A stretch of DNA of 42,705 nucleotides from a virus (IMGVR_UViG_2778261632_000005:1-42705), one strand, 5' to 3'. Counted from the first letter of the stretch, positions 1,135 through 29,517 are shown. The notes: generated by a model not told the origin, from the letters alone. Translations and numbers: made by a program.

Positions 1135-1357
1135 TAAGGATCCTTTGCAATTTTGGTGAGTCAGATTTCTTGATAACCGGCGCAGCAAGTTCTCCAACCA
1201 ATTCCGCGTCCTCTCTAACTCTCCAGAGCCTACCTTGCTTCATTGCTGGTGGAGAAAAGAGATTTTGCTTAGCGTAACGGCGCAATGTTGAGACGCTAGG
1301 TGGATTACTTCTGTATTTATCGGTTGCCCATTCTTCAAGAGTTAACATCTGAATCAT
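1112..1357 (-). CDS. xis: Excisionase-like small DNA-binding protein
   Basis: 81 aa directly upstream of int and overlapping its start by 23 nt as in lambda xis-int; GGAGA RBS. Confidence 0.65.
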   Translation of the reverse strand: MIQMLTLEEWATDKYRSNPPSVSTLRRYAKQNLFSPPAMKQGRLWRVREDAELVGELAAPVIKKSDSPKLQRILSDGSETT

Positions 1358-1416
1358 GCGTTATTCTCCATTTAACCCGGCTGCACCCGGAATACGAAAT
1401 TATAAATTATCGCTGG

Positions 1417-1701
1417 TTAGCTTTGGTGGAACAGCATAGAGCGGCCCGGGTGAGACATCAAAACAGCGCCAGCGTATATCACAGGTTCTTTCTTCACCTT
1501 CTTTGTGCCAGTCAACGACATCTGCCACTGGCTCGGCGTTCCTACCTGCCAACACTCATCTACTACCTTCAACATATCCGCGAGAATGTAAGCTCTGTTC
1601 CCGCCGTTTGAGTACTGGGTATCATGCTGCAGGTGTTCGCGTATCTGGTGCAGTCGATCGAGTGATGCAGGACCGTGCGCCGGGTGGTTGTTAGTTGTCA
1701 T
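1417..1701 (-). CDS. Hypothetical protein (94 aa)
   Basis: ATG overlaps the TGA stop of the upstream methyltransferase gene (ATGA coupling). Confidence 0.5.
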   Translation of the reverse strand: MTTNNHPAHGPASLDRLHQIREHLQHDTQYSNGGNRAYILADMLKVVDECWQVGTPSQWQMSLTGTKKVKKEPVIYAGAVLMSHPGRSMLFHQS

Positions 1702-2477
1702 GCTGCACGCTCCTGATTATTTATTTCTACGCAGCACGCTGAATGCTGCAGCTGCCACTCGCGGAACTTGTCCATTTCCAAGGGCTTTAATTCTGTCCAC
1801 CCGATGGGCCACCCCATTAGCCACTCGACCCATTCCGGGTTCAGTGGGCCAGTTACCGTATCCAGCTGCGGTGCAAATGACGGGATTCTGGATGGCGTAT
1901 TTACCTGCTGCGCTAAGCTGGTTCCCGTCATCTTCTCTGTGTACAGCCTCCCCGGTTCGCGTCGCTCGCTGATGGCGTTGTCCACATCCTGTGCGACGAC
2001 CCAAATTCTGTCTCGCTTGTGAGGCGCTCCAGCGTCGAGTGCTGAAATACGACACCATTGCGCGTCATACCCCATTTCGGCAAGGTCACCAACGACCACT
2101 GCAAGTCCTCTTCTAACAAGCAACGGTGAGTTTTCCACGAGCACGAAGCGCGGTCGAACCTCACTGATAATTCTTGCCATGTGCCGCCATAGTCCAGATT
2201 TCTCGCCATCAATTCCCGCTCCCTTTCCAGCGGCGCTAATGTCCTGGCATGGAAACCCTCCAGAAACGACATCAACAATTCCTCTCCATGGCTTTCCGTC
2301 AAAACTGCGCACGTCAGACCAAATCGGGAAAGGTCTGAGGATTCCATCGTTTTGTCGTTGCGCGAGAACTTGTGCGGCGTAGGCATCACGTTCAACTGCG
2401 CAAACTGTGCGCCATCCAAGGAGGTACCCTCCGAGAATTCCTCCGCCAGCGCCTGCGAAAAGAGCCAACTCATTCAC
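1698..2477 (-). CDS. DNA (cytosine-5)-methyltransferase, short orphan type
   Basis: Motif I FAGAGG, motif IV GGFPCQDIS (PCQ catalytic Cys), motif VI VLVENSP, motif VIII HKRDRIWVV; no adjacent restriction endonuclease gene. Confidence 0.85.
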   Translation of the reverse strand: MNELALFAGAGGGILGGYLLGWRTVCAVERDAYAAQVLAQRQNDGILRPFPIWSDVRSFDGKPWRGIVDVVSGGFPCQDISAAGKGAGIDGEKSGLWRHMARIISEVRPRFVLVENSPLLVRRGLAVVVGDLAEMGYDAQWCRISALDAGAPHKRDRIWVVAQDVDNAISERREPGRLYTEKMTGTSLAQQVNTPSRIPSFAPQLDTVTGPLNPEWVEWLMGWPIGWTELKPLEMDKFREWQLQHSACCVEINNQERAA

Positions 2478-2985
2478 ATGCTCCTCCCTGGCACTCCCCC
2501 TTCACGCCAATGCCAGCGGCTTGTAGTTCATCTTCTAGGTGACAAATCTCTTTCGCCATCCTCATTTGGTTGCTTTCGGCGCGGTCCTTGTAGTCACGGA
2601 AATCTCGCTCTACTTCTAATCGCTTCTCTCGGTGAATGCTTTCCAATGATTTAGCTTGGTGTAAATCCTCTGCCTGTCGCTCAAGCTTGAATCGCTGAAG
2701 TTCTACCAACTCATTTGCGGCTTCCAGCTCATCCATCAGCGCCACCACATCAGGGTCGCTAACATCGACGGCGATGACGCGTGACTGTTCGTAGTGGTAG
2801 TCAGCGATGCTGCGACCTTCTGCGTAATGCCCCCCAGCATCGTCATAAGTTGCTCCAGTACAACCGTAAGTAATTCGGCTGGCAGAAATACGCTGCACTG
2901 TCATTTCCGCGCCGCAAATGTGGCATTTAGGTACTGGCTGCGGTGAATAGCGCTCACGCAGCGCCTGTTTGTTGAGTGCTGTCAT
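2470..2985 (-). CDS. Hypothetical protein with N-terminal Cys-rich segment and coiled-coil C-terminus
   Basis: 171 aa ORF; CHICG...YGC putative zinc-binding pattern; charged heptad-like C-terminal half; stop overlaps the methyltransferase start. Confidence 0.55.
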   Translation of the reverse strand: MTALNKQALRERYSPQPVPKCHICGAEMTVQRISASRITYGCTGATYDDAGGHYAEGRSIADYHYEQSRVIAVDVSDPDVVALMDELEAANELVELQRFKLERQAEDLHQAKSLESIHREKRLEVERDFRDYKDRAESNQMRMAKEICHLEDELQAAGIGVKGECQGGACE

Positions 2986-3239
2986 TGGGTGGTCTCCTTG
3001 CGAAACATCAGTATTGTCAGGTCGCCTTTTGTTTCCAGTCGAACAGACCCACCAGGCTCAATCTCAGAAAGGTTGAATGCGTCATACAGTTCATTAACAG
3101 CCTTCTGTCTCTTTTCCTGCTTCTTTCTGGATACCCATTGCTTAAAGGCGATACTGATAAACCATTCACCGGCTTTAAACATGATGTATAACCACCCAAT
3201 AAGAGCTAAACCAGTATTCATCATTGTTGCGATGCTCAT
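2982..3239 (-). CDS. Small membrane-anchored hypothetical protein (85 aa)
   Basis: One hydrophobic helix (GLALIGWLYIMF) then a charged tail; 4-nt overlaps with neighbours. Confidence 0.5.
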   Translation of the reverse strand: MSIATMMNTGLALIGWLYIMFKAGEWFISIAFKQWVSRKKQEKRQKAVNELYDAFNLSEIEPGGSVRLETKGDLTILMFRKETTQ

Positions 3240-3757
3240 AGCGCGGCTCCTTTGCGAAGTTGGGCGGCGAATTCTGCGATGTCTGCTCTGGCCGTGTAGT
3301 GAGGTGGTAGAGAAGCGAGAAGCATCTCCACACCCTGTGCCCGCACTTCAGCCAGGATGGCGTCGGTGGCTGGGGCTTTGCCAGCTTTGCGCTCAATGGC
3401 GCATTGAAGACCTTGAATGGCATCCACAACGCGATTGCTGTCAAGATAGGTCTTACTACGATATACGTGCCTCATAACATCTGATGCGCACTCTTTCACG
3501 GTTACATTCTCCGCCGCCAGCTCCCTGCACTTGCTCTCGGCGTTAGCGAGCTGTACTGCCATGTCTGTGAGTTTCAGTTCAAGATTGTGAATAGTTGCGT
3601 CTGCTGCACGAAACTCGCGCTGGGATTCCGTTAAATTTGAGCATGCGTTCTGAATTGAGTAGGCCAAAATGGCAGTATCACGATCATCTGATTCTTCAGC
3701 TTTAACCTGCAACTGAACCGCCAGGCTGAAGAGATCAGCAATTTGAGTTTCTGTCAT
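3236..3757 (-). CDS. Hypothetical protein (about 173 aa)
   Basis: ORF open to 3859, but the ATG at 3757 lies 4 nt downstream of the ParB-like gene stop; start uncertain. Confidence 0.5.
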   Translation of the reverse strand: MTETQIADLFSLAVQLQVKAEESDDRDTAILAYSIQNACSNLTESQREFRAADATIHNLELKLTDMAVQLANAESKCRELAAENVTVKECASDVMRHVYRSKTYLDSNRVVDAIQGLQCAIERKAGKAPATDAILAEVRAQGVEMLLASLPPHYTARADIAEFAAQLRKGAAL

Positions 3758-5628: not shown

Positions 5629-5705
5629 TGGTGCAGCATGCAGGATTCGAACCTGCGACCCACGGCTTAGAAGGCCGCTGCTCTATCCATCTGAGCTAAT
5701 GCCAC
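5629..5705 (-). tRNA. tRNA-Arg (anticodon UCU), prophage-borne
   Basis: 77-nt cloverleaf read on the minus strand: D-arm GCTC/GAGC, anticodon loop CUUCUAA, T-arm GCAGG-UUCGAAU-CCUGC, 3' ACCA; the acceptor stem has two adjacent G-U pairs. Confidence 0.8.
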
Positions 5706-13323: not shown

Positions 13324-13335
13324 GTGGAGACGCTC

Positions 13336-14166
13336 ATGGATCTCGATAATGTTGTTAAATTTTTTGCCCCAAAAGGAATGCATATTTCCGATAGTGTTCG
13401 CGCTACTGCTAGTGAACAACTAACAGTAACTGATGTTATGGCAGCTCTTGGCATGACCCAGGCAGACGCTGGAATTGGCCTTGCCATGTATCTTGGTAAG
13501 GCTGGGGTAAGTAAGCAGGACAGAGAAGCATCAATAAACTGGCTTGCTGAATACGCCAAAGAATCCGCGCCTTTTGCAGTTCGCCGCCTAGCCGGTAAAA
13601 AATTCCCTCTATGTATGCTCATCTTGGCTAAGTTCGCCTATAACGACTATGCATCATCAGCTGCTGATGTATTCGATTGTCCTAAATGCAATGGCAAAGG
13701 GCTAATTGAAAAAGTTGTAACGGTAACTAAAAGCCATTACACAATGAGGCTTCCGCAATGGGCCAAAGACTTCGGGCAGTCACCATCTTATTTCGAAAAG
13801 AAGCGTGAGGTTAAGGATATTGAGCAATCACTCTGCACTAAATGTCACGGAACCGGAAAGCTAAGCAAGCGCTGCCAGTGTGGTGGGACAGGAAAGACGC
13901 TGGACCGAAAAGCAACAGATCTTCAGGGCGTACCGGTTTATAAGGAATGCAAACGCTGTGAAGGTCGCGGTTACAGCAGACCAAAATCCTCCGTTGCTTA
14001 CCGGGGTATCTTTTCCGAACTTCCAAGCCTTCCAGATCGTACTTGGCGCTATAGCTGGAAACCATTCTATGAAATGCTCGTTTCTCGTTGTTTCCAGGAA
14101 GAGAGCTATTCAAATACACAATTGAAAAAAGTTACCAGAAACGAAAGTTTGAGCGATATCGCGTAA
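13336..14166 (+). CDS. Q: Late antiterminator, Q-like
   Basis: Sits just before a promoter-terminator region and the lysis genes; Cys-rich zinc-finger-like motifs (CPKCNGKG, CTKCHGTGK, CQCGGTGK, CKRCEGRG). Confidence 0.65.
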   Translation: MDLDNVVKFFAPKGMHISDSVRATASEQLTVTDVMAALGMTQADAGIGLAMYLGKAGVSKQDREASINWLAEYAKESAPFAVRRLAGKKFPLCMLILAKFAYNDYASSAADVFDCPKCNGKGLIEKVVTVTKSHYTMRLPQWAKDFGQSPSYFEKKREVKDIEQSLCTKCHGTGKLSKRCQCGGTGKTLDRKATDLQGVPVYKECKRCEGRGYSRPKSSVAYRGIFSELPSLPDRTWRYSWKPFYEMLVSRCFQEESYSNTQLKKVTRNESLSDIA

Positions 14167-14262: not shown

Positions 14263-14285
14263 CCTCGCTACGGCGGGGTTTTTTT
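14263..14285 (+). terminator. Intrinsic terminator (tR'-like) downstream of Q
   Basis: Stem CCTCGC/GCGGGG with loop TACG then a T7 run; candidate promoter TTGCAA-16 nt-TAATTT at 14184-14211. Confidence 0.65.
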
Positions 14286-14437
14286 ATGGATGACCGCCGC
14301 CAATAAGACAAAGAGCGGGGAGTGATAAGGAGTCTACATGTTCCAGCCGACCTTAAAGCTCACATAGGCAGGACCACAATTAAACTCTGCGCAAACCAAG
14401 GTTGAGCGCCCTGTACCAGTAAGCAGGACCATTTTAA

Positions 14438-16753: not shown

Positions 16754-17017
16754 TCATTACAAAGCTCATCTGCTGGTGGACTATAAACAGATAGCATTAC
16801 AGCAGGCATTCACTGAGTGCCTGTGATAATGTCAAATTGTGGTGAATGCGCAGGCTGATGCGCGTGCAACAGCTACTCATTGAAACGGTAGTTATGTCGG
16901 AGTTCAGCACCGGCCACCACACCTAATTGAATTGTCAGTGGCTAGGGTAGCTCCTGAAAAGCGGCATCGTCACCGCCTGCCACTGATAACATGACGAGCA
17001 ACTAAGACGAGGTTGTG

Positions 17018-17398: not shown

Positions 17399-17734
17399 AT
17401 GAATTATCAGCTTGCAAAATTGTATCGCGGTGATCGTTTCTTCGGGTATGGAATAGCCGTAGGTGGCTTGCTTATTGATGGTCAGGTTTCAACGGTGGTA
17501 GAAACTGCGCCAAACGAAATGCCGAAAGTAATTGCGACATTTAATCTCAGCAATGAACATTCCGAAAAACAACCACGAATTGATTTAGACAACCCAAGAG
17601 CTTCTAACGAATTCCAGATTGTAATCCATCCAGATAAGACATTAACCGTTGAGCAGTTAGAAGAGTTGCGAGACACGGTTAAAGGATTTCTTACCAAGCA
17701 TAATTTGTCTGATGGTGGTTTATGGAAGTATTAA
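17399..17734 (+). CDS. Hypothetical protein (111 aa), first gene of the glycosyltransferase cassette
   Basis: 3' end overlaps the downstream glycosyltransferase start by 13 nt. Confidence 0.5.
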   Translation: MNYQLAKLYRGDRFFGYGIAVGGLLIDGQVSTVVETAPNEMPKVIATFNLSNEHSEKQPRIDLDNPRASNEFQIVIHPDKTLTVEQLEELRDTVKGFLTKHNLSDGGLWKY

Positions 17735-19179
17735 TAAACGGGGTGCGTTTTACACCAGAAGGCGATAACAAAGTACGTATTGGGATTGCAATCACAACCC
17801 ATAATCGGCATGAAGTGCTTAAGCGTGCCATTGAGCAGCACATGAAGCATCTTCCATCTGGTGCGCTGGTGGTTGTGATAGACGATGGATCAAGTCCTGC
17901 TGCAATAGTTCCTGATGGGGTTAAGTTGGTACGCCATGAGCAATCACGCGGCATTGTCGCCTCTAAGAACGCCAGCCTGACAGCGCTGGTGGACGCAGGG
18001 TGTGAGCATCTTTTCCTGTGGGATGATGATGCGTGGCCAATAGCTGATAACTGGCATCTACCCTACATCGAGTCACCAGAACCCCATTTGGCTTATCAGT
18101 TTCTTGACCTCGCTGGTCCACGAAAGATTAACGATATGACTGTCCTGTACAGGGATGATAAGCATATCGCTTACACCGGGCAGCGCGGCGTTATGCTTTA
18201 TTACCACCGCAGCGCCATTGATAAGGTTGGCGGCTTCGATCCGGTATACGGGCGTGGCATGTACGAGCATCCTGATCTGGCGCTTCGCATTCACAACGCA
18301 GGGTTATCGACCTGGGCGTTTGCGGATGTTGCGGGCTCTGAAAAGCTCATTCATTCGATGGATGAATACGAAGAGGGTGCGCGTTCAATTCCCCGACCTG
18401 AGTGTGAAGCGTTAGCAAAAGCTAATGCTGTTATTTATAGCGACAGACGCGATAACGGTTATACCGCATACGTTCCTTTCAGGAAACAGCGCAACGTGGT
18501 GATTACGGCATTGCTGACCAGCCAGAATGATCCACAACGTCAGGTAAGGATGAAAGCGTCTCCTGAGTTGGTTCAGGGATGGGCCACGTCTATTAGTGGC
18601 GCTGATGCAGTGGTACTGGCCGATGAGCTCGATACAGCACCGAAAGGTGCGGACCTTTTTAAAGTGTCACCTTTGTCAATGAGTCCCTATTTCGCACGAT
18701 GGCTGCATATTTATCAGTATCTGCGTGCTCATCCAGAGTATCTCCTTATCTGGTGTACTGATGGTACCGATGTCGAAATGCTTAGAGAGCCATGGGCAGA
18801 AATGCAGCCGGGTAAAATTTACGTGGGCTCAGAGCATAAGACGTATGCCGACGAATGGATGAAGTCCAATCACCACGGCAAAGCGTATAGCGAGTTCATC
18901 GAGAAGCACATTGATGAACCGCTGCTCAACGCTGGACTACTTGGTGGTAGTCGTGACGATGTAATGGAGTTTGCTCACAGGATCATCAGACAGTATTACC
19001 TGATTGAAAGCCATCATTTCTGGAGGATGGAGACAGCTCTCCCCGCGCTGGTCGATATGGGTGCTTTCGGTATGGCTGCGAAGTCATTTGGCAATAGAGT
19101 CGTTACCGGCCCTAAGGTTCATACCATTTTTAAAACTGATGGTATCGGTAAGGAGTTCGCATGGTTTCGCCACAAGTAA
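17722..19179 (+). CDS. Two-domain glycosyltransferase (N-terminal GT2-like GT-A domain, second DxD-containing domain)
   Basis: 485 aa; N-terminal GT2 pattern (IGIAITTHNRHEVLKRAIEQ, VVIDDGSS, LWDDDAWP); C-terminal half has a further acidic motif (LIWCTDGTDVE). Confidence 0.7.
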   Translation: MEVLINGVRFTPEGDNKVRIGIAITTHNRHEVLKRAIEQHMKHLPSGALVVVIDDGSSPAAIVPDGVKLVRHEQSRGIVASKNASLTALVDAGCEHLFLWDDDAWPIADNWHLPYIESPEPHLAYQFLDLAGPRKINDMTVLYRDDKHIAYTGQRGVMLYYHRSAIDKVGGFDPVYGRGMYEHPDLALRIHNAGLSTWAFADVAGSEKLIHSMDEYEEGARSIPRPECEALAKANAVIYSDRRDNGYTAYVPFRKQRNVVITALLTSQNDPQRQVRMKASPELVQGWATSISGADAVVLADELDTAPKGADLFKVSPLSMSPYFARWLHIYQYLRAHPEYLLIWCTDGTDVEMLREPWAEMQPGKIYVGSEHKTYADEWMKSNHHGKAYSEFIEKHIDEPLLNAGLLGGSRDDVMEFAHRIIRQYYLIESHHFWRMETALPALVDMGAFGMAAKSFGNRVVTGPKVHTIFKTDGIGKEFAWFRHK

Positions 19180-19754
19180 TGTTTGTGGTTATTGGTCATC
19201 ATGTTCGCCGTAAACAGGCATTGATTTTGGCTGAATCTATTGGTGCAACCCTGATGATTGATACTGATGATCACGGTGCTAACTGGAATCATCGCCGCGC
19301 GCTGGAATGGGCAGCCAATCAATCATGCCGTGTGGTAGTGCTTGAAGATGATGCTATGCCAGTTGCTGGTTTCTGCGAAAAGATTGCTGTATGGCTTGCA
19401 CGTTATCAGGATGCACTGTGTTCATTTTATCTCGGCACTGGCCGTCCACCACAGTATCAACTGGAGATAGCATCAAAGCTAATAGCAGCTGATAAGGCCA
19501 GAGCTGACTTCATTACATTGCCGCGTCTTATTCATGGCGTCTGCTACAGCGTACCTCAGCAACATATCAAGAGAGTGCTGGATAAATGGAACCACAGCAA
19601 AGCAGCAGACTATGCAGTCGGTGATGCTTACGGTGGCCCTGTTGTCTATCCATGCTACTCACTTGTTGACCACGCTGATGGACAGCCAGTAGAACCAGCC
19701 AGAGACAATCAGCCAAGAACAGAACGCCGCAGAGCATGGAGGTTACATGTCTAA
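19179..19754 (+). CDS. Putative GT-A-fold glycosyltransferase (191 aa)
   Basis: DxD-like motif VVLEDDAMP; ATG overlaps the upstream stop (TAATG); the ORF is open from 19161. Confidence 0.5.
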   Translation: MFVVIGHHVRRKQALILAESIGATLMIDTDDHGANWNHRRALEWAANQSCRVVVLEDDAMPVAGFCEKIAVWLARYQDALCSFYLGTGRPPQYQLEIASKLIAADKARADFITLPRLIHGVCYSVPQQHIKRVLDKWNHSKAADYAVGDAYGGPVVYPCYSLVDHADGQPVEPARDNQPRTERRRAWRLHV

Positions 19755-20680: not shown

Positions 20681-22339
20681 ATGGCTCAATGGACCACGGC
20701 TTGCCCTGAATGGGAATCTCTTCTGGTTGCAAAGCAATCAATCATCCCACCACCAATTTTCCCAGACCAGGCAGAACAGGCACTTGGCATCTTCAAAGAG
20801 TTACGCGTCTCTGATTTACCAGGGAAGCCAACATTTGGTGAGTGTTCCGAGGAATGGGTATTTGACTTTGTTAATGCCATTTTTGGTGGCTATGAAGCAG
20901 AGACTGGTAAGCAGTTAATCCGCGAATATGGACTACTTATCTCGAAAAAGAACACAAAATCGACCATCGCTGCAGGAATTATGCTGACCGCGCTAATCCT
21001 GTGCTGGCGTGAAGATGAAGAGCACCTGATTCTCGCGCCGACAAAAGAGGTGGCTGATAACAGTTTTAAACCTGCTGCCGGGATGATACGCGCCGATGAA
21101 GAGCTGTCTGATATGTTCCAGATTCAGGACCATATCCGCACCATCACACACCGAGTAACACGAAATACACTCAAAGTAGTAGCAGCTGACACCGATACTG
21201 TTTCAGGTAAAAAGTCAGGGCGCATTCTGGTCGATGAGCTTTGGTTGTTTGGCAAGCGAGCTAATGCCGAAGCCATGTTTATGGAAGCACTTGGTGGGCA
21301 GGTATCTCGCAACGAAGGGTGGGTTATATTCCTGACTACGCAAAGTGATGAACCGCCTGCTGGTGTATTCAAAGAACGCCTTGATTACTGGCGAGCTGTG
21401 CGAGATGGGAAGATTAATGACCTTAAAACACTCGGCGTCCTGTATGAATTCCCTGACTCTATGGTGGAAAGCAAGGCTTACCTTGAACCAAAAAATTTCT
21501 ACATCACCAATCCGAATATTGGACGTTCGGTAAGTGAAGAATGGATTGCCGATCAGCTTCTGAAGAACCAGAACAAAACAGACGGCACATTACAGCAGTT
21601 CCTTGCGAAACACCTCAATATCGAAATTGGTCTGAACCTCCGCAGTGACCGATGGGCAGGTGTTGATTTCTGGGAGCCGCAAATTAGGCAGGTAACATTC
21701 AGCGATATCCTTCAGCGAGCTGAGGTTGCTACGGTTGGGATAGATGGTGGTGGCCTTGATGACCTTCTTGGTCTTTACATTATTGGTCGTGACAAAGAAA
21801 CCCGTGAGTGGATTGGATGGGGCCATGCCTGGGCGCATGAAATAGCTGTGCGCCGCAGAAAAAGCGAGGAATCCAGGTTCAACGATTTCGTTAAGGCCGG
21901 TGACCTGACTATCGTAAAACGAGTAGGACAGGACACGGAGGAAGTCGCTGAATATGTTAGCCGTATTAATGATGCGGAACTGCTGGATAAAATTGGCATT
22001 GACCCTTCTGGTGTCGGTCAGATCCTTGATGCTCTTGTAGAAGCTGAAATACCTGAAGATTCAGTGGTTGGTGTCAGCCAGGGATGGAGACTTGGTGGTA
22101 CGATTAAGACCACAGAGCGCAAGCTTGCAGAGGGTGTGCTTATTCATGGCGGACAACCATTAATGGCCTGGTGTGTAGGAAACGCCAGAGTAGAGCCAAA
22201 AGGTAACGCTATCCTCATCACCAAACAGGCCAGCGGTAAGGGTAAAATTGACCCCCTTATGGCCCTGTTTAATGCCGTTTCGCTAATGGCACTTAATCCT
22301 GAAGCGAAGAAGAAAGATTACCAGGTATTTTTTATATAA
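20681..22339 (+). CDS. Terminase large subunit
   Basis: 552 aa directly after TerS; N-terminal ATPase region and acidic nuclease-like C-terminal region (GIDGGGLDDLLG). Confidence 0.8.
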   Translation: MAQWTTACPEWESLLVAKQSIIPPPIFPDQAEQALGIFKELRVSDLPGKPTFGECSEEWVFDFVNAIFGGYEAETGKQLIREYGLLISKKNTKSTIAAGIMLTALILCWREDEEHLILAPTKEVADNSFKPAAGMIRADEELSDMFQIQDHIRTITHRVTRNTLKVVAADTDTVSGKKSGRILVDELWLFGKRANAEAMFMEALGGQVSRNEGWVIFLTTQSDEPPAGVFKERLDYWRAVRDGKINDLKTLGVLYEFPDSMVESKAYLEPKNFYITNPNIGRSVSEEWIADQLLKNQNKTDGTLQQFLAKHLNIEIGLNLRSDRWAGVDFWEPQIRQVTFSDILQRAEVATVGIDGGGLDDLLGLYIIGRDKETREWIGWGHAWAHEIAVRRRKSEESRFNDFVKAGDLTIVKRVGQDTEEVAEYVSRINDAELLDKIGIDPSGVGQILDALVEAEIPEDSVVGVSQGWRLGGTIKTTERKLAEGVLIHGGQPLMAWCVGNARVEPKGNAILITKQASGKGKIDPLMALFNAVSLMALNPEAKKKDYQVFFI

Positions 22340-22358
22340 ATAACACGTCAGTTAATGA

Positions 22359-22378
22359 CCCGCCACGGCGGGTTTTTT
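22359..22378 (+). terminator. Intrinsic terminator-like hairpin after terL
   Basis: Stem CCCGC/GCGGG with loop CACG then TTTTTT. Confidence 0.55.
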
Positions 22379-22397
22379 CGTTTCTGGAGGACAGTAA

Positions 22398-24335
22398 ATG
22401 AAGCTTGACCGCGCATGTACGATCATGACGGTGAAAGCGGTGGATGAGGACAAACGGATAATCACCGGGATTGCTTCCACACCATCACCTGACCGTGACG
22501 GCGACATTATGGACCCTGACGGTGCGAAGTTCGGTAGTGAAAACCCTTTCCTCTGGCAGCATGACAGAACCCAACCTATTGGGAACTGTTCTGCAAAGAA
22601 AGTGAAAGAAGGGCTTCAGATCACGGCGCAACTTGTTAAGCCAACACCTGACATGCCATCGCAGCTGGTGGCCAGGCTTGAAGAAGCGTGGGCATCAATC
22701 AAATCAGGTCTTGTGAAAGGCCTGTCTATCGGCTTCAAGCCAATTAAATACGCATATCTCGACTCTGGTGGCATCCATTTTCTTGAATGGGAGCTTCTTG
22801 AAGTTTCTGCAGTAACGATCCCGGCGAATGCCGAGTGTTCGATTCAAACCGTTAAATCGTTTGACCGCCAGTTACTCGCCGCGCTCGGCACTGAGAAACC
22901 GGTAGTTAAAACCATAAATTCTGCTGGCGCTTCAGCACCGAATAAATCTTCTCAAAAAGGAAAATCAACGATGAATATCGCTGAACAGATCAAAAGTTTT
23001 GAAAACAAGCGTGCAGCGCTGGCTTCTTCACTGAACGACATCATGAGCAAAGCCGCCGATGAAGGCCGCACGCTGGATGCGGAAGAAACAGAAAGCTACG
23101 ACAACACCTCTACTGAAATCAAAGCGGTCGACGAGCACCTTAAACGCCTGCGTGATATGGAAACCAGCATGGCATCAACCGCCAAGCCAGTAACTAAAGC
23201 AGCATCTGGTGAAGTTACAGTGGTGAATAACGCACCATCCATCATCCGTGTAGAGCCTAAGCTGGAAAAAGGTATTGCCTTTGCCCGTTTTGCCAAGTCT
23301 CTTGCAGCTGGTAACGGTAGCCGCTCCGAAGCGCTACAGATTGCGAAAAACCAGTATCCTGATGACACCAAACTTCATCACGTTCTGAAAGCTGCGGTAA
23401 GTGCTGGTACTACCACAGACCCTGCCTGGGCTGGTGCACTGGTTGAATATCAGGATTACGCGCAGGATTTCGTTGAGTTTCTGCGTCCTCAGACCATTAT
23501 CGGACGTTTTGGCCAGGGTAACATCCCGTCCCTGCGTCAGGTTCCGTTCAATGTTCGAATTCCGGCGCAGACCTCCGGTGGTTCTGCTAACTGGGTTGGT
23601 CAGGGTAAAGCCAAGCCTCTGACCAAGTTTGACTTCGCAACCATCACCTTCGGTTTCTCCAAGGTGGCTTCTATTGCAGTACTGACCGAAGAGTTGATCC
23701 GTTTCTCAAATCCATCTGCTGATGCTCTGGTGCGTAACGCCCTGGCTGAAGCGGTGATCGCGCGGCTGGATACCGACTTCATCGACCCGGCAAAAGCGGC
23801 AGTGGCTGATGTTTCCCCTGCATCTATTACCAACGGTATTACTGCGATTCCGTCTACTGGCGATCCAGATACCGATGCTGCAGCAGCATTTGGTAAATTT
23901 ATTACCAATAACCTGCAGCCGAATGGCGCGGTATGGCTGATGTCCAGTACTACGGCTCTCACTCTCTCCATGCGTAAAAATGCCCTGGGCCAGAAAGAGT
24001 ATCCTGACATGACCATGCTGGGCGGTACATTCCAGGGTCTGCCAGTAATTGTCTCCCAGTACGTTGGCAATCAGTTGGTGCTGGTTAATGCACCGGATGT
24101 ATACCTGGCTGATGACGGCGGTGTGGCAGTTGATATGTCTCGCGAAGCTTCTCTGGAAATGCAGAGCGCTCCGACCCATGACAGCACCACCCCAACGGCA
24201 GTGGAACTGGTATCCATGTTCCAGACCAACAGCGTGGCCATCCGTGCAGAGCGCTGGATTAACTGGAAACGCCGTCGCGATACAGCAGTGGCCGTTATCT
24301 CCGGCGTTGATTACAGCACTGGCGCTACCAGCTAA
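22398..24335 (+). CDS. Fused prohead protease (HK97 family) and major capsid protein (HK97 fold)
   Basis: 645 aa; N-terminal 170 aa resembles HK97-type prohead protease, the rest from MNIAEQIKSF resembles HK97-family major capsid protein. Confidence 0.75.
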   Translation: MKLDRACTIMTVKAVDEDKRIITGIASTPSPDRDGDIMDPDGAKFGSENPFLWQHDRTQPIGNCSAKKVKEGLQITAQLVKPTPDMPSQLVARLEEAWASIKSGLVKGLSIGFKPIKYAYLDSGGIHFLEWELLEVSAVTIPANAECSIQTVKSFDRQLLAALGTEKPVVKTINSAGASAPNKSSQKGKSTMNIAEQIKSFENKRAALASSLNDIMSKAADEGRTLDAEETESYDNTSTEIKAVDEHLKRLRDMETSMASTAKPVTKAASGEVTVVNNAPSIIRVEPKLEKGIAFARFAKSLAAGNGSRSEALQIAKNQYPDDTKLHHVLKAAVSAGTTTDPAWAGALVEYQDYAQDFVEFLRPQTIIGRFGQGNIPSLRQVPFNVRIPAQTSGGSANWVGQGKAKPLTKFDFATITFGFSKVASIAVLTEELIRFSNPSADALVRNALAEAVIARLDTDFIDPAKAAVADVSPASITNGITAIPSTGDPDTDAAAAFGKFITNNLQPNGAVWLMSSTTALTLSMRKNALGQKEYPDMTMLGGTFQGLPVIVSQYVGNQLVLVNAPDVYLADDGGVAVDMSREASLEMQSAPTHDSTTPTAVELVSMFQTNSVAIRAERWINWKRRRDTAVAVISGVDYSTGATS

Positions 24336-24342
24336 GAAGGAG

Positions 24343-24360
24343 GGCGGGGGAAACCCCGCC
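24343..24360 (+). other. GC-rich stem-loop with GAAA tetraloop downstream of the capsid gene
   Basis: GGCGGGG-GAAA-CCCCGCC, perfect 7-bp stem; no strong U-run. Confidence 0.6.
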
Positions 24361-24367
24361 GTTTCAT

Positions 24368-24538
24368 ATGGCAAAGATCAGATACCTACAGCGTACACAT
24401 GACTCATTGCCAGGTGATGAGAAAATTGTGAATGACCAGTGCGCAAAGGTACTGGTTCTGCTGCATAAAGCTGAATATGTGACTGGCAAAAAAGCTGGTG
24501 GACCGAAAAAGAAAAAAGTTAACGCGGAGAATGGCTGA
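24368..24538 (+). CDS. Small basic hypothetical protein (56 aa), absent from the supplied ORF track
   Basis: Found by manual translation (MAKIRYLQRTHDSLPGDEKIVNDQCAKVLVLLHKAEYVTGKKAGGPKKKKVNAENG); stop overlaps the portal ATG; no clear RBS. Confidence 0.4.
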   Translation: MAKIRYLQRTHDSLPGDEKIVNDQCAKVLVLLHKAEYVTGKKAGGPKKKKVNAENG

Positions 24539-25890
24539 TGTGGAATCCTTTTAGTCGGAAAGAGAAAGCACTACAGCAACCATCATCTCGCGGCTGGACT
24601 CCGATATTTTCCTTTGTCAGAGAACCTTTCGCAGGTGCCTGGCAAAGAAACATGGAAATCAGGAATGAGACCGTACTTTCGTATTATGCGGTGTTCTCTT
24701 GCATTACGCTGATAGCCAGTGACATTTCAAAGATGTCGCCAGCCATTCAGGCCAAAGATTCTAACGGCATCTGGAAAGAAGTTTCGGATAATGAATTCGA
24801 CACACTAATCAGTAAACCTAACCAGTTTCAGAACACAATTCAGTTTTTTGAAACGTGGATGAATTCAAAACTTTCTCGCGGAAATACCTACGTGATGAAG
24901 GTTAAAAACAATACCGGGAAGATTACAGAACTTCGTATTCTTGATCCGGATAAAGTCACACCCTTAGTTGCTGATGATGGTTCTGTTTTTTATCAAATTA
25001 GCCCTGACCAGATTAGCGGTTTGCCGACACAAGTAACCGTTCCGGCGCGAGAAATAATTCACGATCGCTTTAACTGCCTATTTCATCCTTTGATCGGTAT
25101 TTCTCCTATCTATGCATGTGGACTCGCAGCAATGCAGGGTAAGCACATCCAGGAAAGCTCTGCGTTCTTCTTTAAAAATGGCGGCAAACCAAGTGGCGTT
25201 ATTACTATTCCTGGCTCTGTTGATGCTGACAAAGCCACAGAAATAAAAAAAGCATGGGATGCAGGTTACACAGGGGAAAATGCAGGAAAGACTGGACTGT
25301 TATCAGGTGGCGCAGAATACAAAGCGATCACCATGTCTGCGGTAGATGCGCAGACTGTTGAGCAGCAGAAACTCTCTGCAGAAATGGTTTGTTCTGCCTT
25401 CCATGTCCCGGCATATAAGGCTGGCGTTGGCGAAATACCAAGTTCTGATAACGTTGAAGCACTTGAACAACAATATTACTCACAGTGCCTGCAGGTGCTG
25501 ATTGAGTCTATCGAGTCACTCTTGAAAGAAGCTTTCGAACTGGATGCCAAAAAGCGTGTTGAGCTTGATATCGGCGCGCTGTTACGAATGGACAGCGAAC
25601 GCAGAATGAAAGCGCTGGGTGATGGAGTTAAAAACACCATCCTTACTCCAAACGAAGCCCGTAAAAGTGAAAACCTTCCTCCTGTTGAAGGTGGTGATTC
25701 TCTCTTCCTGCAGCAGCAGAACTTCAGCCTGGCAGCGCTGGCCAGGCGCGATGCATCAGAAGACCCATTCGCGAAAGGGACGCAACAGCCGCAGACAGCG
25801 ATTGCACCTGTTGATGAAAGTGGAAAGACGCTAAGTGAGACTGAACTTTTCGCGGCGAAAACAATGCTCAGAGGATTATTAACAAAATGA
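24538..25890 (+). CDS. Portal protein, HK97 family
   Basis: 450 aa; composition and C-terminal pattern (LTPNEARKSENLPPVEGGD) consistent with HK97-type portals. Confidence 0.7.
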   Translation: MWNPFSRKEKALQQPSSRGWTPIFSFVREPFAGAWQRNMEIRNETVLSYYAVFSCITLIASDISKMSPAIQAKDSNGIWKEVSDNEFDTLISKPNQFQNTIQFFETWMNSKLSRGNTYVMKVKNNTGKITELRILDPDKVTPLVADDGSVFYQISPDQISGLPTQVTVPAREIIHDRFNCLFHPLIGISPIYACGLAAMQGKHIQESSAFFFKNGGKPSGVITIPGSVDADKATEIKKAWDAGYTGENAGKTGLLSGGAEYKAITMSAVDAQTVEQQKLSAEMVCSAFHVPAYKAGVGEIPSSDNVEALEQQYYSQCLQVLIESIESLLKEAFELDAKKRVELDIGALLRMDSERRMKALGDGVKNTILTPNEARKSENLPPVEGGDSLFLQQQNFSLAALARRDASEDPFAKGTQQPQTAIAPVDESGKTLSETELFAAKTMLRGLLTK

Positions 25891-26771
25891 ATGAACGTGA
25901 ATTATCCCTGATTAAAGCGCTTGGTGAAGAGTTTGGAGCAGCCATTAAAAAAATGGCAGATGACTTTCAGCAAGCGCTGGAGAAAACAGCCAGTAATCTG
26001 GAGAAGCAACTGGAAGAGGTTCGTCAATCAATTCCAGAATTCCAACCAGTAGAAATACCAGATGTATCTAAAATGGTTGCCGATGCTGTAAGTGAAATTG
26101 AATTACCGAAGGCTCCAGAACTACCAGACTTGAACCAGATTATCGCCGATGCTGCCAAAAGCGCGGTGAAGCAGGTTTTTGAATCAATTCCAGTACCCAA
26201 GGATGGTAAAAGCGTCACGGTTGATGATCTGCGTCCCCTTGTCGAAGAGGTAGTTAATGCGTTAATTCCTGAGCCGGTAGATGTTGAAAAGCTCGCTCAG
26301 GATTTGTTGTCAAAGATTCCTGATCCTGAACCTGGTTCAGATGGTCGTGACGCTCTTGCAATAGAGCTTGAACCATTCATTGACGAGAAAAAAAGCTATC
26401 CACGCGGTACCTATGCGACTCACAAAGGCGGCCTTTGGCGCGCCCATGAAAAGACGCACGGCATGCGGGGCTGGGAATGTATTGTTGACGGTGTGTCTGG
26501 CATTGATATCAAACAAGATAACCAGCGAACCTTCTCAATTTCTCTCGAAAGAGCAAGCGGAACTGTTGAAGTTAAGTCCTTTGACATCCCGGTAACTATC
26601 TATCGCGATGTATTCAAATCTGGTACCGAATATCAACCTGGCGATACGGTCACATGGGGTGGTTGTATGTGGCATTGCAACGAGAAAACCTGCGACAAGC
26701 CTGGTGAGACAGGATCAAAAGGATGGACGCTTGCTGTTAAGAAAGGGCGAGATCTGAGGGATAAACCATGA
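25887..26771 (+). CDS. Hypothetical head-region protein (294 aa)
   Basis: Coiled-coil N-terminus, Pro/Glu-rich linker, Cys/His-containing C-terminal domain (WGGCMWHCNEKTCDKPGE); ATGA overlap with the portal stop. Confidence 0.5.
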   Translation: MNERELSLIKALGEEFGAAIKKMADDFQQALEKTASNLEKQLEEVRQSIPEFQPVEIPDVSKMVADAVSEIELPKAPELPDLNQIIADAAKSAVKQVFESIPVPKDGKSVTVDDLRPLVEEVVNALIPEPVDVEKLAQDLLSKIPDPEPGSDGRDALAIELEPFIDEKKSYPRGTYATHKGGLWRAHEKTHGMRGWECIVDGVSGIDIKQDNQRTFSISLERASGTVEVKSFDIPVTIYRDVFKSGTEYQPGDTVTWGGCMWHCNEKTCDKPGETGSKGWTLAVKKGRDLRDKP

Positions 26772-27094
26772 TTGAACTGGTTACGCTCGAAGAAGCTAAA
26801 TTGCATCTCCGTATTGATGACGACTATGGAGATACTGATCTTACCTTGAAAATTAAGGGCGGCAGTGCGGCGATCCTTTCTTACATCCAGGGGAGTCGCG
26901 CGCTAATCGTGGGTGATTCTGGAAATCTTATCGATGGTGAGCCGCTTACTCGCGTTCAGACAGCCCTGTTGGTTCTGCTTGGCTATCTGGACCGTAACCG
27001 CGGCGGCGAAGAAGAAGAAAAGTTGAAACAGGGAGAGCTTCCTTTTTCTGTATCAATGCTGATTTACGACCTCCGTAAGCCGACAATTATTTAA
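26768..27094 (+). CDS. Head-tail connector protein (gp6-like)
   Basis: 108 aa, N-terminal LEEAKLHLRID pattern typical of gp6-like connectors. Confidence 0.6.
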   Translation: MIELVTLEEAKLHLRIDDDYGDTDLTLKIKGGSAAILSYIQGSRALIVGDSGNLIDGEPLTRVQTALLVLLGYLDRNRGGEEEEKLKQGELPFSVSMLIYDLRKPTII

Positions 27095-27164
27095 GGGGCA
27101 GGTATGGCATGCGCAGGATGCGCCAGACGGCGCGAGTGGATTAAAAAGTGGACGAGGATTGCCT

Positions 27165-27359
27165 ATGAACGAGCAGCAGGTAAACGAACTAACGGTGGCA
27201 CTGAAAGCGCTGGCAACGTCTCAAATGAAACAGGCAGAAGCGATAAACCGTCTGGCTCAGGCTGATGAAACACTGATATCTCTGATTGCAAAAACGCTCG
27301 TTGATGAAATTGACGATGAGTTGCCACCGCAAACCTATCTTGATGGCAAGCCGAGGTAA
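27165..27359 (+). CDS. Hypothetical small head-tail region protein
   Basis: 64 aa ORF between connector and head-closure genes. Confidence 0.4.
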   Translation: MNEQQVNELTVALKALATSQMKQAEAINRLAQADETLISLIAKTLVDEIDDELPPQTYLDGKPR

Positions 27360-27361
27360 TT

Positions 27362-27694
27362 GTGGAATTTGCAAAACTGCGCCACCGCGTCACCATTCAG
27401 CGGAGAACCGCCATCCAGTCACCTACTACTGGTGCAATGGAATATACCTGGAATGACCTTGCAGATGTCTGGGGTAACGTGGTTGCCTCTTCGGTCAGGG
27501 ATTTCATTACAGCCCAGGCATCAAACGTAAAAGTAACAGCCAGAATCACTATTCGATACCGGGAAGATATCCAGGAGAAAGACCGTATTCTTTTCTGTGG
27601 CAAAATCTACAGCATTGAGGGGATCCTTCCTGACCCTGATAGTGGACTCGAATATCTCACGCTTCCGTGCTCAGAGGGGGTAAAGGATGGCTGA
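27362..27694 (+). CDS. Head closure / head-tail adaptor protein
   Basis: 110 aa, GTG start with GAGG RBS; position and size typical of head-tail joining proteins. Confidence 0.55.
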   Translation: MEFAKLRHRVTIQRRTAIQSPTTGAMEYTWNDLADVWGNVVASSVRDFITAQASNVKVTARITIRYREDIQEKDRILFCGKIYSIEGILPDPDSGLEYLTLPCSEGVKDG

Positions 27695-28172
27695 CAGCAT
27701 TGAGTTTAAGCTTGAAGGTGTAGATTCACTGCTTGGTAAGTTAGAAGCCATTACCACGGAAACTAAGCGCAAAACAGGGCGCTCCGCACTGAGGAAGGCG
27801 GGTAACGTTATCGTAACTCAGGTAAAGAGAAACGCAGAACGACTGGACGACCCTCACACAGCCCGTAGCATTGCTGATAACGCCGCGCTTCGCTGGAATG
27901 GTCGTATGTTTAAACAAACCGGTGATCTTGCCTTCAGGATAGGCATTCTTCAGGGCGCCGTACTTAAAAAACATCCAAGCACTGCGAAAGATGCACCCAC
28001 TCCACACTGGCGTCTTCTTGAGTTTGGCACTGAAAAGATGGCAGCAAAACCGCTGGTTCGTGCTGCAGCAAATTCCAGCTTGATAGAGGTTTTCAACACA
28101 TTCTCTGTTAACTACGAAGCGGGGATTGACCGAGCCATCAAACGAGCACAGAAGAAAGGAGAGACGGCATGA
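27687..28172 (+). CDS. Tail completion protein (HK97 gp10-like)
   Basis: 161 aa; position and size. Confidence 0.55.
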   Translation: MADSIEFKLEGVDSLLGKLEAITTETKRKTGRSALRKAGNVIVTQVKRNAERLDDPHTARSIADNAALRWNGRMFKQTGDLAFRIGILQGAVLKKHPSTAKDAPTPHWRLLEFGTEKMAAKPLVRAAANSSLIEVFNTFSVNYEAGIDRAIKRAQKKGETA

Positions 28173-28534
28173 TTGCTCCTATTTTCCCTGTTTGCGCATC
28201 GAGTTCTGAAGTCACTGCTTTACTCGGAAGTAATCCGTTAAGAATTTACCCTTTCGGCATTCAGGATGATAACGTTGTTTATCCATACGCCGTCTGGCAG
28301 AACATCAGCGGCTCTCCCGAAAATTTCCTAAACCAACGACCAGATGCGGACATGTATTCGCTTCAGGTTGATATCTATGCCGATACCCCTGATGAGGCTA
28401 TTTCTGTCGCTCAGGCCATGCGTAATGCGATTGAGGTAAAAGCCAACATTGTTCGCTGGGGTAATCAGACGCGAGACCCTGAGACGCTCAGGTATCGATA
28501 TTCTTTCGACGTTGACTGGATAGTCAACCGATAA
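28169..28534 (+). CDS. Tail terminator-like protein
   Basis: 121 aa immediately upstream of the major tail gene. Confidence 0.5.
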
Positions 28535-28546
28535 CAAACCTTCCAC

Positions 28547-28570
28547 AACCGGCCTTGAGCCGGTTTTTTT
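28547..28570 (+). terminator. Hairpin plus T-run upstream of the major tail gene
   Basis: Stem AACCGGC/GCCGGTT with loop CTTGA then TTTTTTT. Confidence 0.55.
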
Positions 28571-28586
28571 ATACCCGGAGATAATT

Positions 28587-29084
28587 ATGTCAGTAGTGAC
28601 TCAAGGCACTCAGATGTACGTTCTGAATAACGGTGTGGTCAGTGAAGTTGAATGTATTACTTCGTTCTCACCAGGTAGTAGCCCGGCAGATCAGATTGAA
28701 GATACCTGTCTGAGTGAAACCAGTACTCGTTCCTATAAAAAAGGTCTGCGCACACCTGGTCAGGCTACGGTAGCTCTTAACGCAGACCCGGCAAACGCCA
28801 GTCATGTCATGCTGAGCAATCTTGCCGAATCAAGCGATCAAACAAACCTGACCTTCGCTATTGGCTGGGCTGATGGAACGGATGAACCAACGGTAGCGAC
28901 TTCAGGTGATCCAGATGCAGTAGATGGTCTTTCTCTACCGGATACGCGTACCTGGTATGTATTCCAGGGCTATGTTTCTGATTTCCCGTTCGACTTCCAG
29001 GCTAATACGGTCGTACAAACCTCAGCAACTATTCAGCGTTCAGGGCAGGGGGTTTGGGTTCCAAAGGCCCAACCAACGAGCTAA
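28587..29084 (+). CDS. Major tail tube protein
   Basis: 165 aa, GGAG RBS, immediately upstream of the G/GT chaperone pair. Confidence 0.7.
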
Positions 29085-29101
29085 TAACCAGGCATTAATG
29101 A

Positions 29102-29117
29102 GCGGGGGAAACCCCGC
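29102..29117 (+). other. GC-rich stem-loop with GAAA tetraloop downstream of the major tail gene
   Basis: GCGGGG-GAAA-CCCCGC; same motif as at 24343-24360. Confidence 0.6.
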
Positions 29118-29139
29118 AAATTGAGAGGAGAGGAAAGAA

Positions 29140-29517
29140 ATGAAACTGAATATGGATTCGTTAAAACAGGCAGGGGCGTTCACTGGTCGTCCTGTTGAAA
29201 AGGAAATTACCTGGAAGCAAGGCGATAAGGAGATCACAGCTACCGTTTATATCCGACCAATGGGTTATCACGACGCGGTATCAAATGTTCTTTCAGCAGT
29301 GGGAAAAATTGATGGTGTTGCAGGGCGTATTGCTGCATCAATCTGTGATGAAAATGGTGCACCTGTTTTCACTGTCGCCGATATCACTGGTGAAGCAGAC
29401 CCTGAGCGCGGCGCACTTGATGGTGCTCTTACCGTCGCTCTGCTTGTCGCTATTCAGCAGGTTAACGATCTGGGAAAGGCGAACTCAGCGCAGAAGACGA
29501 ATTCTGGTGTGAATTAG
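29140..29517 (+). CDS. Tail assembly chaperone (lambda gpG-like)
   Basis: 125 aa between major tail and tape measure genes; contains a G GGA AAG slippery heptamer near the 3' end. Confidence 0.75.
   Translation: MKLNMDSLKQAGAFTGRPVEKEITWKQGDKEITATVYIRPMGYHDAVSNVLSAVGKIDGVAGRIAASICDENGAPVFTVADITGEADPERGALDGALTVALLVAIQQVNDLGKANSAQKTNSGVN

Follow-up and report, generated by a model that had tools for sequence, protein, structure and literature searches.

Intercistronic stem-loops that stabilise the 3' ends of bacterial messengers are known from the repetitive extragenic palindromic (REP) elements of malE-malF and from the hairpins of the puf and pap operons, and in Escherichia coli stable 3' hairpins of this sort are generic barriers to 3'-5' exonucleases. 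Hairpins can also take part in translation initiation, and the best described examples are the split initiation regions of bacteriophage T4 (Gold, 1988; Nivinskas et al., 1999; Malys and Nivinskas, 2009; summarised in PMC3014915, PMC7297116). In these, a hairpin shortens the distance between the Shine-Dalgarno (SD) sequence and the AUG from 22 to 5 nucleotides (nt) in gene 38 and from 27 to 11 nt in gene 25, and mutations destabilising the hairpin lower initiation (PMC3014915, PMC7297116). Here we analyse a viral DNA of 42,705 nt (IMGVR_UViG_2778261632_000005:1-42705, hereafter the window), in which two GC-rich hairpins lie directly downstream of the major capsid gene (hairpin 1, at site 1) and of the tail tube gene (hairpin 2, at site 2). 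The comparisons reported below support the view that selection acts on both as RNA elements of the sense strand and that they are linked to the most abundant structural genes; a role in 3' stabilisation is plausible for them, and hairpin 1 probably also bridges the split ribosome binding site (RBS) of a small gene.

Site 1 resembles T4 genes 38 and 25 in its position, the intercistronic junction of late structural genes, in a layout conserved within the phage group, and in its distances, the gap between SD and ATG being 25 nt in the linear sequence (22 and 27 nt in T4) and 7 nt when folded (5 and 11 nt). It differs in belonging to a temperate lambdoid siphovirus or prophage and not to a T-even phage, in that the hairpin is a short, perfect GC stem of 7 base pairs (bp) with a tetraloop, which is also situated at the 3' end of the capsid gene, and in that the downstream gene is a tiny open reading frame (ORF), apparently coupled to the portal gene and known here from sequence alone. 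With the REP, puf and pap stabilisers the two hairpins share stability, the lack of a U-tract and a position directly after the more abundantly needed cistron, where a block to exonucleases would be expected; unlike REP elements, they are phage-borne single copies without a flanking repeat consensus, and their stabilising effect is predicted. T-phi, the weak terminator after gene 10 of bacteriophage T7, is likewise located directly downstream of a major capsid gene, with a presumed excess of capsid over the downstream products, whereas in the window no U-tract is conserved and transcription would be due to the host RNA polymerase under Q antitermination rather than to a phage polymerase. Finally, the boxB elements of the lambda and P22 nut sites are short GC stems with a GNRA-type loop in lambdoid phages, but the loops described here are unconserved, boxA is absent and the hairpins follow coding genes in a late structural operon, and membership of this class is rejected.

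The elements of the window therefore appear to be of known kinds, none of them categorically new: the recognisable features of a split RBS and of an intercistronic stabiliser are present, and the U-tract of a terminator and the loop of boxB are missing. What seems to be new is a candidate split RBS whose conservation extends over a large family of temperate phages of enterobacteria, Shiga toxin (Stx)-converting phages among them, together with a conserved gene overlooked by annotation and the apparent recurrence of capsid-gene hairpins across many unrelated families.

A candidate split ribosome binding site downstream of the capsid gene

Hairpin 1 starts 8 nt past the stop codon of a gene encoding a fusion of prohead protease and major capsid protein, and the order at site 1 is the capsid TAA (24333-24335), G-AAGGAG, the hairpin, GTTTCAT and an ATG at 24368 (Table 1). 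The ORF of 56 codons opened by this ATG is a genuine gene. Its product, found in 48 distinct variants, has a Lys-rich C-terminus, and among close relatives the gene differs by three substitutions, all in third codon positions. Its TGA stop codon overlaps the ATG of the portal gene as TGATG, an overlap that only a few of about 100 loci lack, and the portal gene would be translationally coupled to the small gene through it; since the small gene ends in TGATG, its initiation rate would also feed portal synthesis. RefSeq and the Prokaryotic Genome Annotation Pipeline (PGAP) leave the small gene without annotation in an identical E. coli genome, probably because its SD is 25 nt from the ATG.

The only SD of the small gene is, in fact, the 5' foot of hairpin 1, and the 25 nt between base 24342, the last unpaired one, and the ATG exceed the distance (about 15 nt) beyond which an SD is non-functional. 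Folding of the 18-nt hairpin leaves 7 nt (6-9 nt in relatives), well within the 5-11 nt or so to which such hairpins cut the spacing, and no other contiguous SD is found near the start, the spacers being free of GGAG, GAGG and AGGA in the relatives examined. The layout is kept, together with the pairing, through changes of the stem itself (at least three stem types, with one exception, L007, discussed below). Because the geometry of GGAG, stem, 6-9 nt and ATG is fixed over three stem types, a split RBS of the T4 gene 38/25 kind would be the best fit. The original prediction had correctly placed hairpin 1 after the capsid gene and had overlooked that it separates the start codon of an unannotated gene from its SD.

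To follow site 1 in relatives, capsid homologues were drawn from species-representative genomes and from IMG/VR, and the counts are samples, not totals. The main set comprises at least 102 loci, with 43 unique intergenic sequences and a capsid identity of 70-100%, and has a constant layout: stop codon, 6-16 variable nt, GGAG, hairpin, 6-9 nt, ATG. The stem GGCGGGG/CCCCGCC occurs in 41 of the 43 unique sequences, and GGAG abuts the stem in 41; in BP-4795 the abutting motif is GGAGG and in one relative (L010) GGAG lies 2 nt before the stem. The spacer between stem and ATG is 6-7 nt long in 41 of the 43, reaches 8-9 nt in distant relatives and varies in sequence (ATTTCAT, ATTTTGC, ATATTGC, GTAATAC, ATTAAC, GTAACTC, AACAGGTT). 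The loops are unconstrained (GAAA, GAGA, GCGA, GATA, GAAT, GAAG, GAAC, GGAA, GAGT, GTAG, CAA, CAAAA, GAGAA, TTT), and GTGT is also present among relatives, so that hairpin 1 is without the constant GNRA-like loop of boxB.

More distant phages retain the arrangement with other stems. In Stx-type prophages (BP-4795 and its relatives, capsid 72% identical) the same layout is built on unrelated 9-bp stems of two types, GGAGG-(ACGGGAGGC-GTGY-GCCTCCCGT)-AACAGGTT-ATG, with 8 nt from stem to ATG, and GGAGG-(GCGGGAGGY-GNNA-GCTTCCCGC)-AGTAACTG-ATG, the hairpin standing in brackets. Alignment across clades by MAFFT misplaced these 9-bp stems; hairpin-anchored tables and, for pair counting, a same-length alignment were used instead. 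In the Stx-like clade, 98.9% of the cells of a 10-sequence alignment are paired, compared with 43-53% in slid controls; one pair swaps A-U for G-C, a compensatory change, and two pairs swap G-C for G-U. The relatives from Erwinia and Pantoea have AAGGAG-NN-(GCGGGGA-GAAA-TCCCCGC)-9 nt-ATG. On these comparisons, the conserved features of site 1 are the hairpin, the adjoining SD and the short distance from stem to ATG, and the U-tract is not among them. A possible independent case of SD, hairpin and ATG in succession is found in an unrelated low-GC viral contig (L026, IMGVR_UViG_3300033075_000854, about 1777-1792, minus strand), which reads GGAGG-G-(hairpin)-CTTTTATTGC-ATG.

Two further roles were considered for hairpin 1 and rejected. 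Stimulation of readthrough or of ribosome bypass was discarded on account of a stop-to-hairpin distance of 6-16 nt, with no conserved frame and no matching pair of take-off and landing codons. As for an antisense terminator, only at site 1 does the minus strand show a tail that is weakly rich in U, and this tail is the complement of the conserved SD.

The hairpin downstream of the tail tube gene

Hairpin 2 starts 18 nt past the stop codon of the tail tube gene, with 17 nt in between, and a further 22 nt separate it from the ATG of the tail assembly chaperone gene, whose SD (GAGAGGAGAGG) is ordinary and placed after the hairpin. The relatives of site 2, from at least 49 loci whose tail tube identity ranges over 62-100%, give 32 unique sequences. 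Of these, 29 carry a strong hairpin after the tail tube gene, and 23 of the 29 have GCGGGG/CCCCGC despite unalignable flanks; other stems are CGGGGC/GCCCCG or GGGCGTGA/TCACGCTC. As at site 1, the loops are diverse (GAAA, GCAA, GCGA, GAAG, GTAAA, CGAT, TTAT, TGCG, GCAT). The SD follows 5-8 nt past the stem and the ATG mostly 16-22 nt past it, a distance steadier than that from stop codon to stem (6-20 nt).

The two sites can be separated. In one relative (L005) the tail module with hairpin 2 is kept beside an unrelated HK97-type head module without the small gene, whose capsid gene has a different hairpin after it (AAGCGGCC-TTCG-GGCCGCTT); the two hairpins of the window thus need not be identical. 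Loops that differ within single genomes (GAAA and GCGA in L148, GTAG and GAAA in L194) give no support to concerted evolution or to copying from one site to the other. A separate observation concerns the chaperone leader of the window (29123-29133, plus strand), which contains a 5-nt duplication (GAGAGGAGAGG versus GAGAGG) absent from every relative examined.

Position, stability and chance expectation

Both hairpins were verified in the sequence with the coordinates and letters originally given, and the genes upstream of them are, as claimed, those for the capsid fusion (PF04586 and PF05065) and the tail tube (PF16460). The absence of strong U-tracts was also borne out: T makes up 4 of the 8 nt past the stem at hairpin 1 and 2 of 8 at hairpin 2. 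Directly 3' of the hairpins come GTTTCATATG (hairpin 1) and AAATTGAGAGG (hairpin 2); the poor U-tracts read GTTTCATA and AAATTGAG, respectively, and hairpin 2 continues into AAAUUGAG, which is without a U-tract. Hairpin 1 was nevertheless picked up in a terminator scan, with G-UUU-C after the stem. In its predicted local fold each hairpin is the dominant structure (z = -3.0 for hairpin 1 and -4.3 for hairpin 2). The exact 16-mer GCGGGGGAAACCCCGC is common to the two, and no copy beyond these two was found in the window at up to 3 mismatches (chance expectation 0.17). A search with the covariance models of Rfam matched neither hairpin, at the gathering threshold or at E <= 10.

Strong hairpins, counted over the whole 42.7 kb as perfect stems of at least 6 bp with at least 5 GC pairs, number six, against 5.2 +/- 2.3 by chance, and a 7-bp all-GC hairpin is expected 0.03 times per window. 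It is their placement that departs from chance: four of the six fall between the genes of the structural operon, where intergenic DNA amounts to 443 nt, or 2.4% (P of about 5e-6, a binomial estimate from window counts). These four are hairpins 1 and 2 and two U-tract hairpins, T1 and T2, and they bracket the capsid and tail tube genes exactly.

T1 lies between the large terminase and capsid genes and T2 between the tail completion and tail tube genes, each about 15 nt before the SD of the following gene; the hairpin proper spans 22357-22374, followed by U6, in T1 and 28547-28565 in T2. In relatives the stem and U-tract of T1 are kept with a variable loop in 46 of 47 unique sequences, and T2 is kept in 26 of 26, also with variable loops and with a fully different stem in one (L011, AGACCCGC/GCGGGTTT). 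The constant stems are ACCCGC/GCGGGT (T1) and ACCGGC/GCCGGT (T2), and U6-7 is retained in essentially all relatives. Since stems are constant and loops free at T1 and T2 as well, such conservation is a trait of all four hairpins throughout the family and not special to the GAAA pair; and since U-tracts are retained at T1 and T2, their absence after hairpins 1 and 2 is meaningful. It is also odd that elements resembling terminators should stand before the two genes in greatest demand. Stabilisation of the 5' end, enhancement of translation by the U-rich stretch or a block to polymerase that lacks the Q modification could account for T1 and T2.

The window represents a prophage of E. coli and matches strain PCP07014 at 100% identity across a 7.5-kb test region, most of which is present in just 4 of 5426 complete genomes. 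Its late operon runs from the small terminase through large terminase, protease/capsid, portal, head-tail connectors, tail completion, tail tube and chaperone to the tape measure gene, and the capsid fusion protein is 72% identical to the "major head protein/prohead protease" of BP-4795. A gene for the antitermination protein Q and, after it, a tR'-like hairpin with U7 (about 14267-14288) precede the lysis and structural genes. In lambda, the Q-modified polymerase passes through terminators; because the Q gene and the tR'-like terminator lie upstream, late transcription in the window is expected to be terminator-resistant, as in lambda.

Table 1. Features of the window discussed in the text, numbered from its first nucleotide.
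Feature	Position	Strand	Remarks
Q antitermination protein gene	13324-14166	+	PF03589, E = 2e-47
Large terminase gene	20681-22339
T1	22357-22380	+	GACCCGC-CACG-GCGGGTT and U-tract; from terminator scan; fold -11.7 kcal/mol
Prohead protease/major capsid fusion gene	22398-24335	+	645 aa; PF04586 and PF05065
SD of small gene, AAGGAG(G)	24337-24343	+	final G is the first stem base
Hairpin 1, GGCGGGG-GAAA-CCCCGCC	24343-24360	+	7 bp; 5' arm GGCGGGG 24343-24349, loop GAAA 24350-24353, 3' arm CCCCGCC 24354-24360; fold -15.9 kcal/mol
Spacer GTTTCAT, stem to ATG	24361-24367	+	7 nt; without SD
Small gene, unannotated, 56 codons	24368-24538	+	MAKIRYLQRTHDS...KKKKVNAENG; phrog_829, E = 7.5e-22
Portal gene	24538-25890	+	PF04860, E = 1.2e-76
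Tail completion gene	28169-28534
T2	28547-28572	+	AACCGGC-CTTGA-GCCGGTT and U7; from terminator scan
Tail tube (major tail) gene, lambda-like	28587-29084	+	PF16460, E = 1.9e-66
Hairpin 2, GCGGGG-GAAA-CCCCGC	29102-29117	+	6 bp; 5' arm GCGGGG 29102-29107, loop GAAA 29108-29111, 3' arm CCCCGC 29112-29117; fold -12.6 kcal/mol
Contiguous SD region of chaperone gene, GAGAGGAGAGGAAAGAA	29123-29139	+	3' of hairpin 2
Tail assembly chaperone gene	29140-29517	+	PF16459, E = 7.8e-35

The same hairpin downstream of capsid genes in unrelated phages

The exact 16-mer has at least 120 matches in IMG/VR, and the figures given here for it, and for the control hairpin below, refer to the matches listed. After relatives of this phage, duplicates and matches near contig ends had been dropped, 74 occurrences were left, around which ORFs were called by a simple longest-ORF proxy. 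An ORF of at least 100 aa ends within 60 nt upstream in 53 of the 74 on the strand that reads GAAA and in 9 on the opposite strand. This sense bias points to a function at the RNA level, as the stem, a palindrome in DNA, has no strand preference. In 55 of the 74, the 8 nt past the 16-mer include no more than 4 T. From the upstream genes a non-redundant set of 31 proteins of at least 200 aa was assembled; 17 of them are major capsid proteins of about ten families (phrog_4523/371, 10, 1328, 138, 267, 514, 283, 1357 and PF09950), two are virion structural proteins of phrog_771, one is a tail sheath protein and the rest are RecT, antirepressor or unknown proteins.

A permuted control hairpin, GGGGCG-GAAA-CGCCCC, also has at least 120 matches in IMG/VR, bounds from which the relative frequencies of the two are not comparable. 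The control follows a gene end on the sense strand in 51 cases and on the opposite strand in 11, and about 7-9 of its 25 upstream proteins are major head proteins, with SSB and Erf also represented. Since the control behaves similarly, there is no ground for calling the 16-mer special, and the hairpin is an instance of a generic class, which on this evidence consists of GC hairpins of great stability with a GNRA cap, located after strongly expressed phage genes and recurrent 3' of capsid genes. The simplest explanation for the repeated 16-mer of the window would be that the sequence space open to such hairpins is small. A literature search for documented post-capsid hairpins in lambdoid phages returned nothing specific.

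A different setting of the 16-mer was observed in a further unrelated contig (L034, IMGVR_UViG_3300034417_000014, 398-3403), which has four copies within 3 kb; each copy stands within AATAGTGGTAGACAA-(hairpin)-TATAATGTTTACA, in which the hairpin is the 17-nt spacer of a repeat resembling a -35/-10 promoter.

A proposed combined role in mRNA protection and translation

We favour, with moderate confidence, a combined reading in which both hairpins protect 3' ends and uncouple adjacent cistrons and hairpin 1 is, in addition, the bridge of a split RBS. The split-RBS component appears better supported than the stabiliser component. The hairpins would act post-transcriptionally, in the Q-antiterminated late mRNA. 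After endonucleolytic cutting of the polycistronic RNA, each would become the protected 3' end of the capsid or tail tube segment, and it would also keep the heavy ribosome traffic of these genes out of the low-copy genes downstream; at both sites a stable sense-strand hairpin does follow the more highly expressed cistron, the arrangement expected of a decay barrier. At site 1, where the intercistronic space is short, the SD of the next gene would have come to lie on the far side of hairpin 1, and only when the hairpin is folded, bringing the spacing from AAGGAG to ATG from 25 down to 7 nt, would it be functional.

The original prediction had argued for selected RNA elements from the presence of the same stem in two places. 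Selection itself is upheld by the conservation in more than 100 relatives in which loops and flanks diverge, by some compensatory change and by the sense bias; the argument from repetition is weak, given that the control hairpin is, within the matches listed, equally abundant and that the tail hairpin persists beside a different head module with another post-capsid hairpin.

Several observations weigh against the combined reading. The split layout is not universal, as a Rouxiella relative (L007) has GAGGGGC-TTCG-GCCCCTC with U5, a weak SD after the hairpin and a start codon 18 nt further on. Compensatory changes within the main clade are few, the stem sequence being kept beyond what pairing alone would need, and the covariation support is modest and comes mainly from the replacement of stems between clades. 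At site 2 the hairpin is absent from 3 of 32 unique relatives and is therefore dispensable. About a quarter of the listed 16-mer occurrences in unrelated contigs (19 of 74) contain 5 or more T within the 8 nt that follow and nearly half of those of the control hairpin have U-rich tails, so that the same hairpin may act as a terminator in other phages. A very stable hairpin in the binding track of the 30S subunit could lower initiation instead of enabling it, and the effects on mRNA half-life and on translation are both deduced from sequence.

Alternative explanations

A purely translational role would leave mRNA stability unaffected: hairpin 1 would be the bridge of the split RBS and nothing else, and hairpin 2 would either keep ribosomes or scanning 70S particles that leave the tail tube gene from re-initiating or insulate the RBS of the chaperone gene from pairing with upstream sequence. 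The strongly conserved geometry of site 1 suits this explanation, and so does the fairly constant distance of hairpin 2 from the ATG in most relatives, more regular than that from the stop codon, which suggests that the hairpin is placed relative to the downstream start. In unrelated phages, however, capsid genes carry the same hairpin with diverse arrangements downstream, often without a nearby start, and its role would therefore be tied to the upstream gene; moreover, some stabilising effect is hard to avoid, stable 3' hairpins being exonuclease barriers. As a complete account, we regard it as rather unlikely.

The hairpins could also be leaky intrinsic terminators, at which the polymerase stops in a fraction of its passes and fewer transcripts reach the low-copy genes. 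Weak terminators are a known device for tuning phage expression (PMC9163698), and GC-rich sense hairpins after highly expressed genes are what would be expected of them; the G-UUU-C tail of hairpin 1 found in the terminator scan, the AUUUUGC of many relatives and the T-rich minority of unrelated 16-mers (19 of 74 listed) point the same way. Partial termination, which the original prediction had offered as an example of function, is nonetheless unlikely as the main role, because hairpin 2 has no U-tract (AAAUUGAG), the weak one of site 1 is unconserved (GTAATAC, ATTAAC, GTAACTC or AACAGGTT in its place), so that neither site has a conserved U-tract, polymerase modified by the Q protein encoded upstream would pass terminators, and genuine hairpins with U6-7 are conserved elsewhere in the operon, at T1 and T2. 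It also leaves the fixed geometry of SD, hairpin and ATG unexplained.

Very doubtful, in our opinion, is the more far-reaching idea that GCGGGG-loop-CCCCGC is a sequence-specific signal for a trans-acting factor (a host or phage RNA-binding protein, a nuclease or possibly the phrog_829 protein) that would label the highest-copy virion cistrons at their 3' ends and coordinate portal and chaperone expression, although this would explain the persistence of the stem at two non-homologous sites and the identical 16-mer after unrelated capsid genes. We give equally little credence to a narrower version, in which both stems are operators for a common RNA-binding regulator, for example the basic 56-aa protein or a structural protein, co-regulating the translation of portal and chaperone in the manner of coat-protein or thrS-type operators. 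It could invoke the stem sequence kept at two non-homologous sites where flanks and loops diverge, the split RBS of thrS, which is an autoregulatory operator (cited in PMC7297116), and the Lys-rich tail of the small protein. Yet the loops are unconstrained, whereas proteins usually read loops or bulges, and the stems of T1 and T2 are equally conserved without sharing sequence. Furthermore, Erwinia phages have a very different small protein with a near-identical hairpin and BP-4795 a similar protein with a different hairpin, which argues that protein and RNA do not co-vary, and a head module that is unrelated and devoid of the small gene is also found with the tail hairpin.

A role at the DNA level, with the palindromes as short homologies for module exchange in mosaic phages, is highly improbable. 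Mosaic joints do coincide with hairpin boundaries: in L194 the tail tube is 94% identical and both of its neighbours 70-75%, L142 combines a large terminase of 68% identity with a capsid of 96%, and in L005 the whole head module is replaced beside the same tail module. But 16-18 bp are very short for homologous recombination, viable joints are expected at gene boundaries anyway, and the strand bias of 53 to 9 among the matches listed is that of an RNA element. Chance similarity of two functionless hairpins, compatible with the total of strong hairpins in the window and with a permuted control equally common among the viral contigs listed, is effectively refuted by the conservation in more than 100 relatives, together with the placement in 2.4% of the sequence and the orientation bias. 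A boxB-like N-utilisation site is ruled out by the variability of the loops, and a REP or miniature inverted-repeat transposable element (MITE) by the presence of two copies only, with flanks that are not shared.

Implications

If the mechanism of the combined reading holds, one short hairpin does two jobs, marking where the capsid message ends and building the RBS of the gene that follows, and the large family of enterobacterial prophages that uses it includes the Stx-converting phages BP-4795 and 1717. Within a single operon, this would be a compact route to hundreds of capsid subunits per dozen portal subunits. In practical terms, standard annotation misses the conserved phrog_829 gene, a proposed gate on portal translation by coupling, and post-capsid hairpins without U-tracts in unrelated phages merit systematic mapping of 3' ends.

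Other features of the window

Downstream of the portal gene, a protein of 294 aa (25887-26771, plus strand) matches "portal protein" PHROGs in its C-terminal half (phrog_1289, E = 3e-106) and, weakly, CBM_5_12; the complete PF04860 portal gene lies directly upstream of it, and the equivalent ORF of BP-4795 is far longer. Between the lysis cassette and the HNH/terminase genes, a GT2-like glycosyltransferase ORF of 485 aa and an overlapping ORF of 197 aa (17722-19754, plus strand) occupy a moron-like position. At the gathering level of Rfam there are two hits. One, at 16935-16999 on the plus strand, is an int-alpA RNA (43.2 bits) flanked by the lysis genes and the morphogenesis region; the other is a tRNA gene at 5632-5705 on the minus strand.

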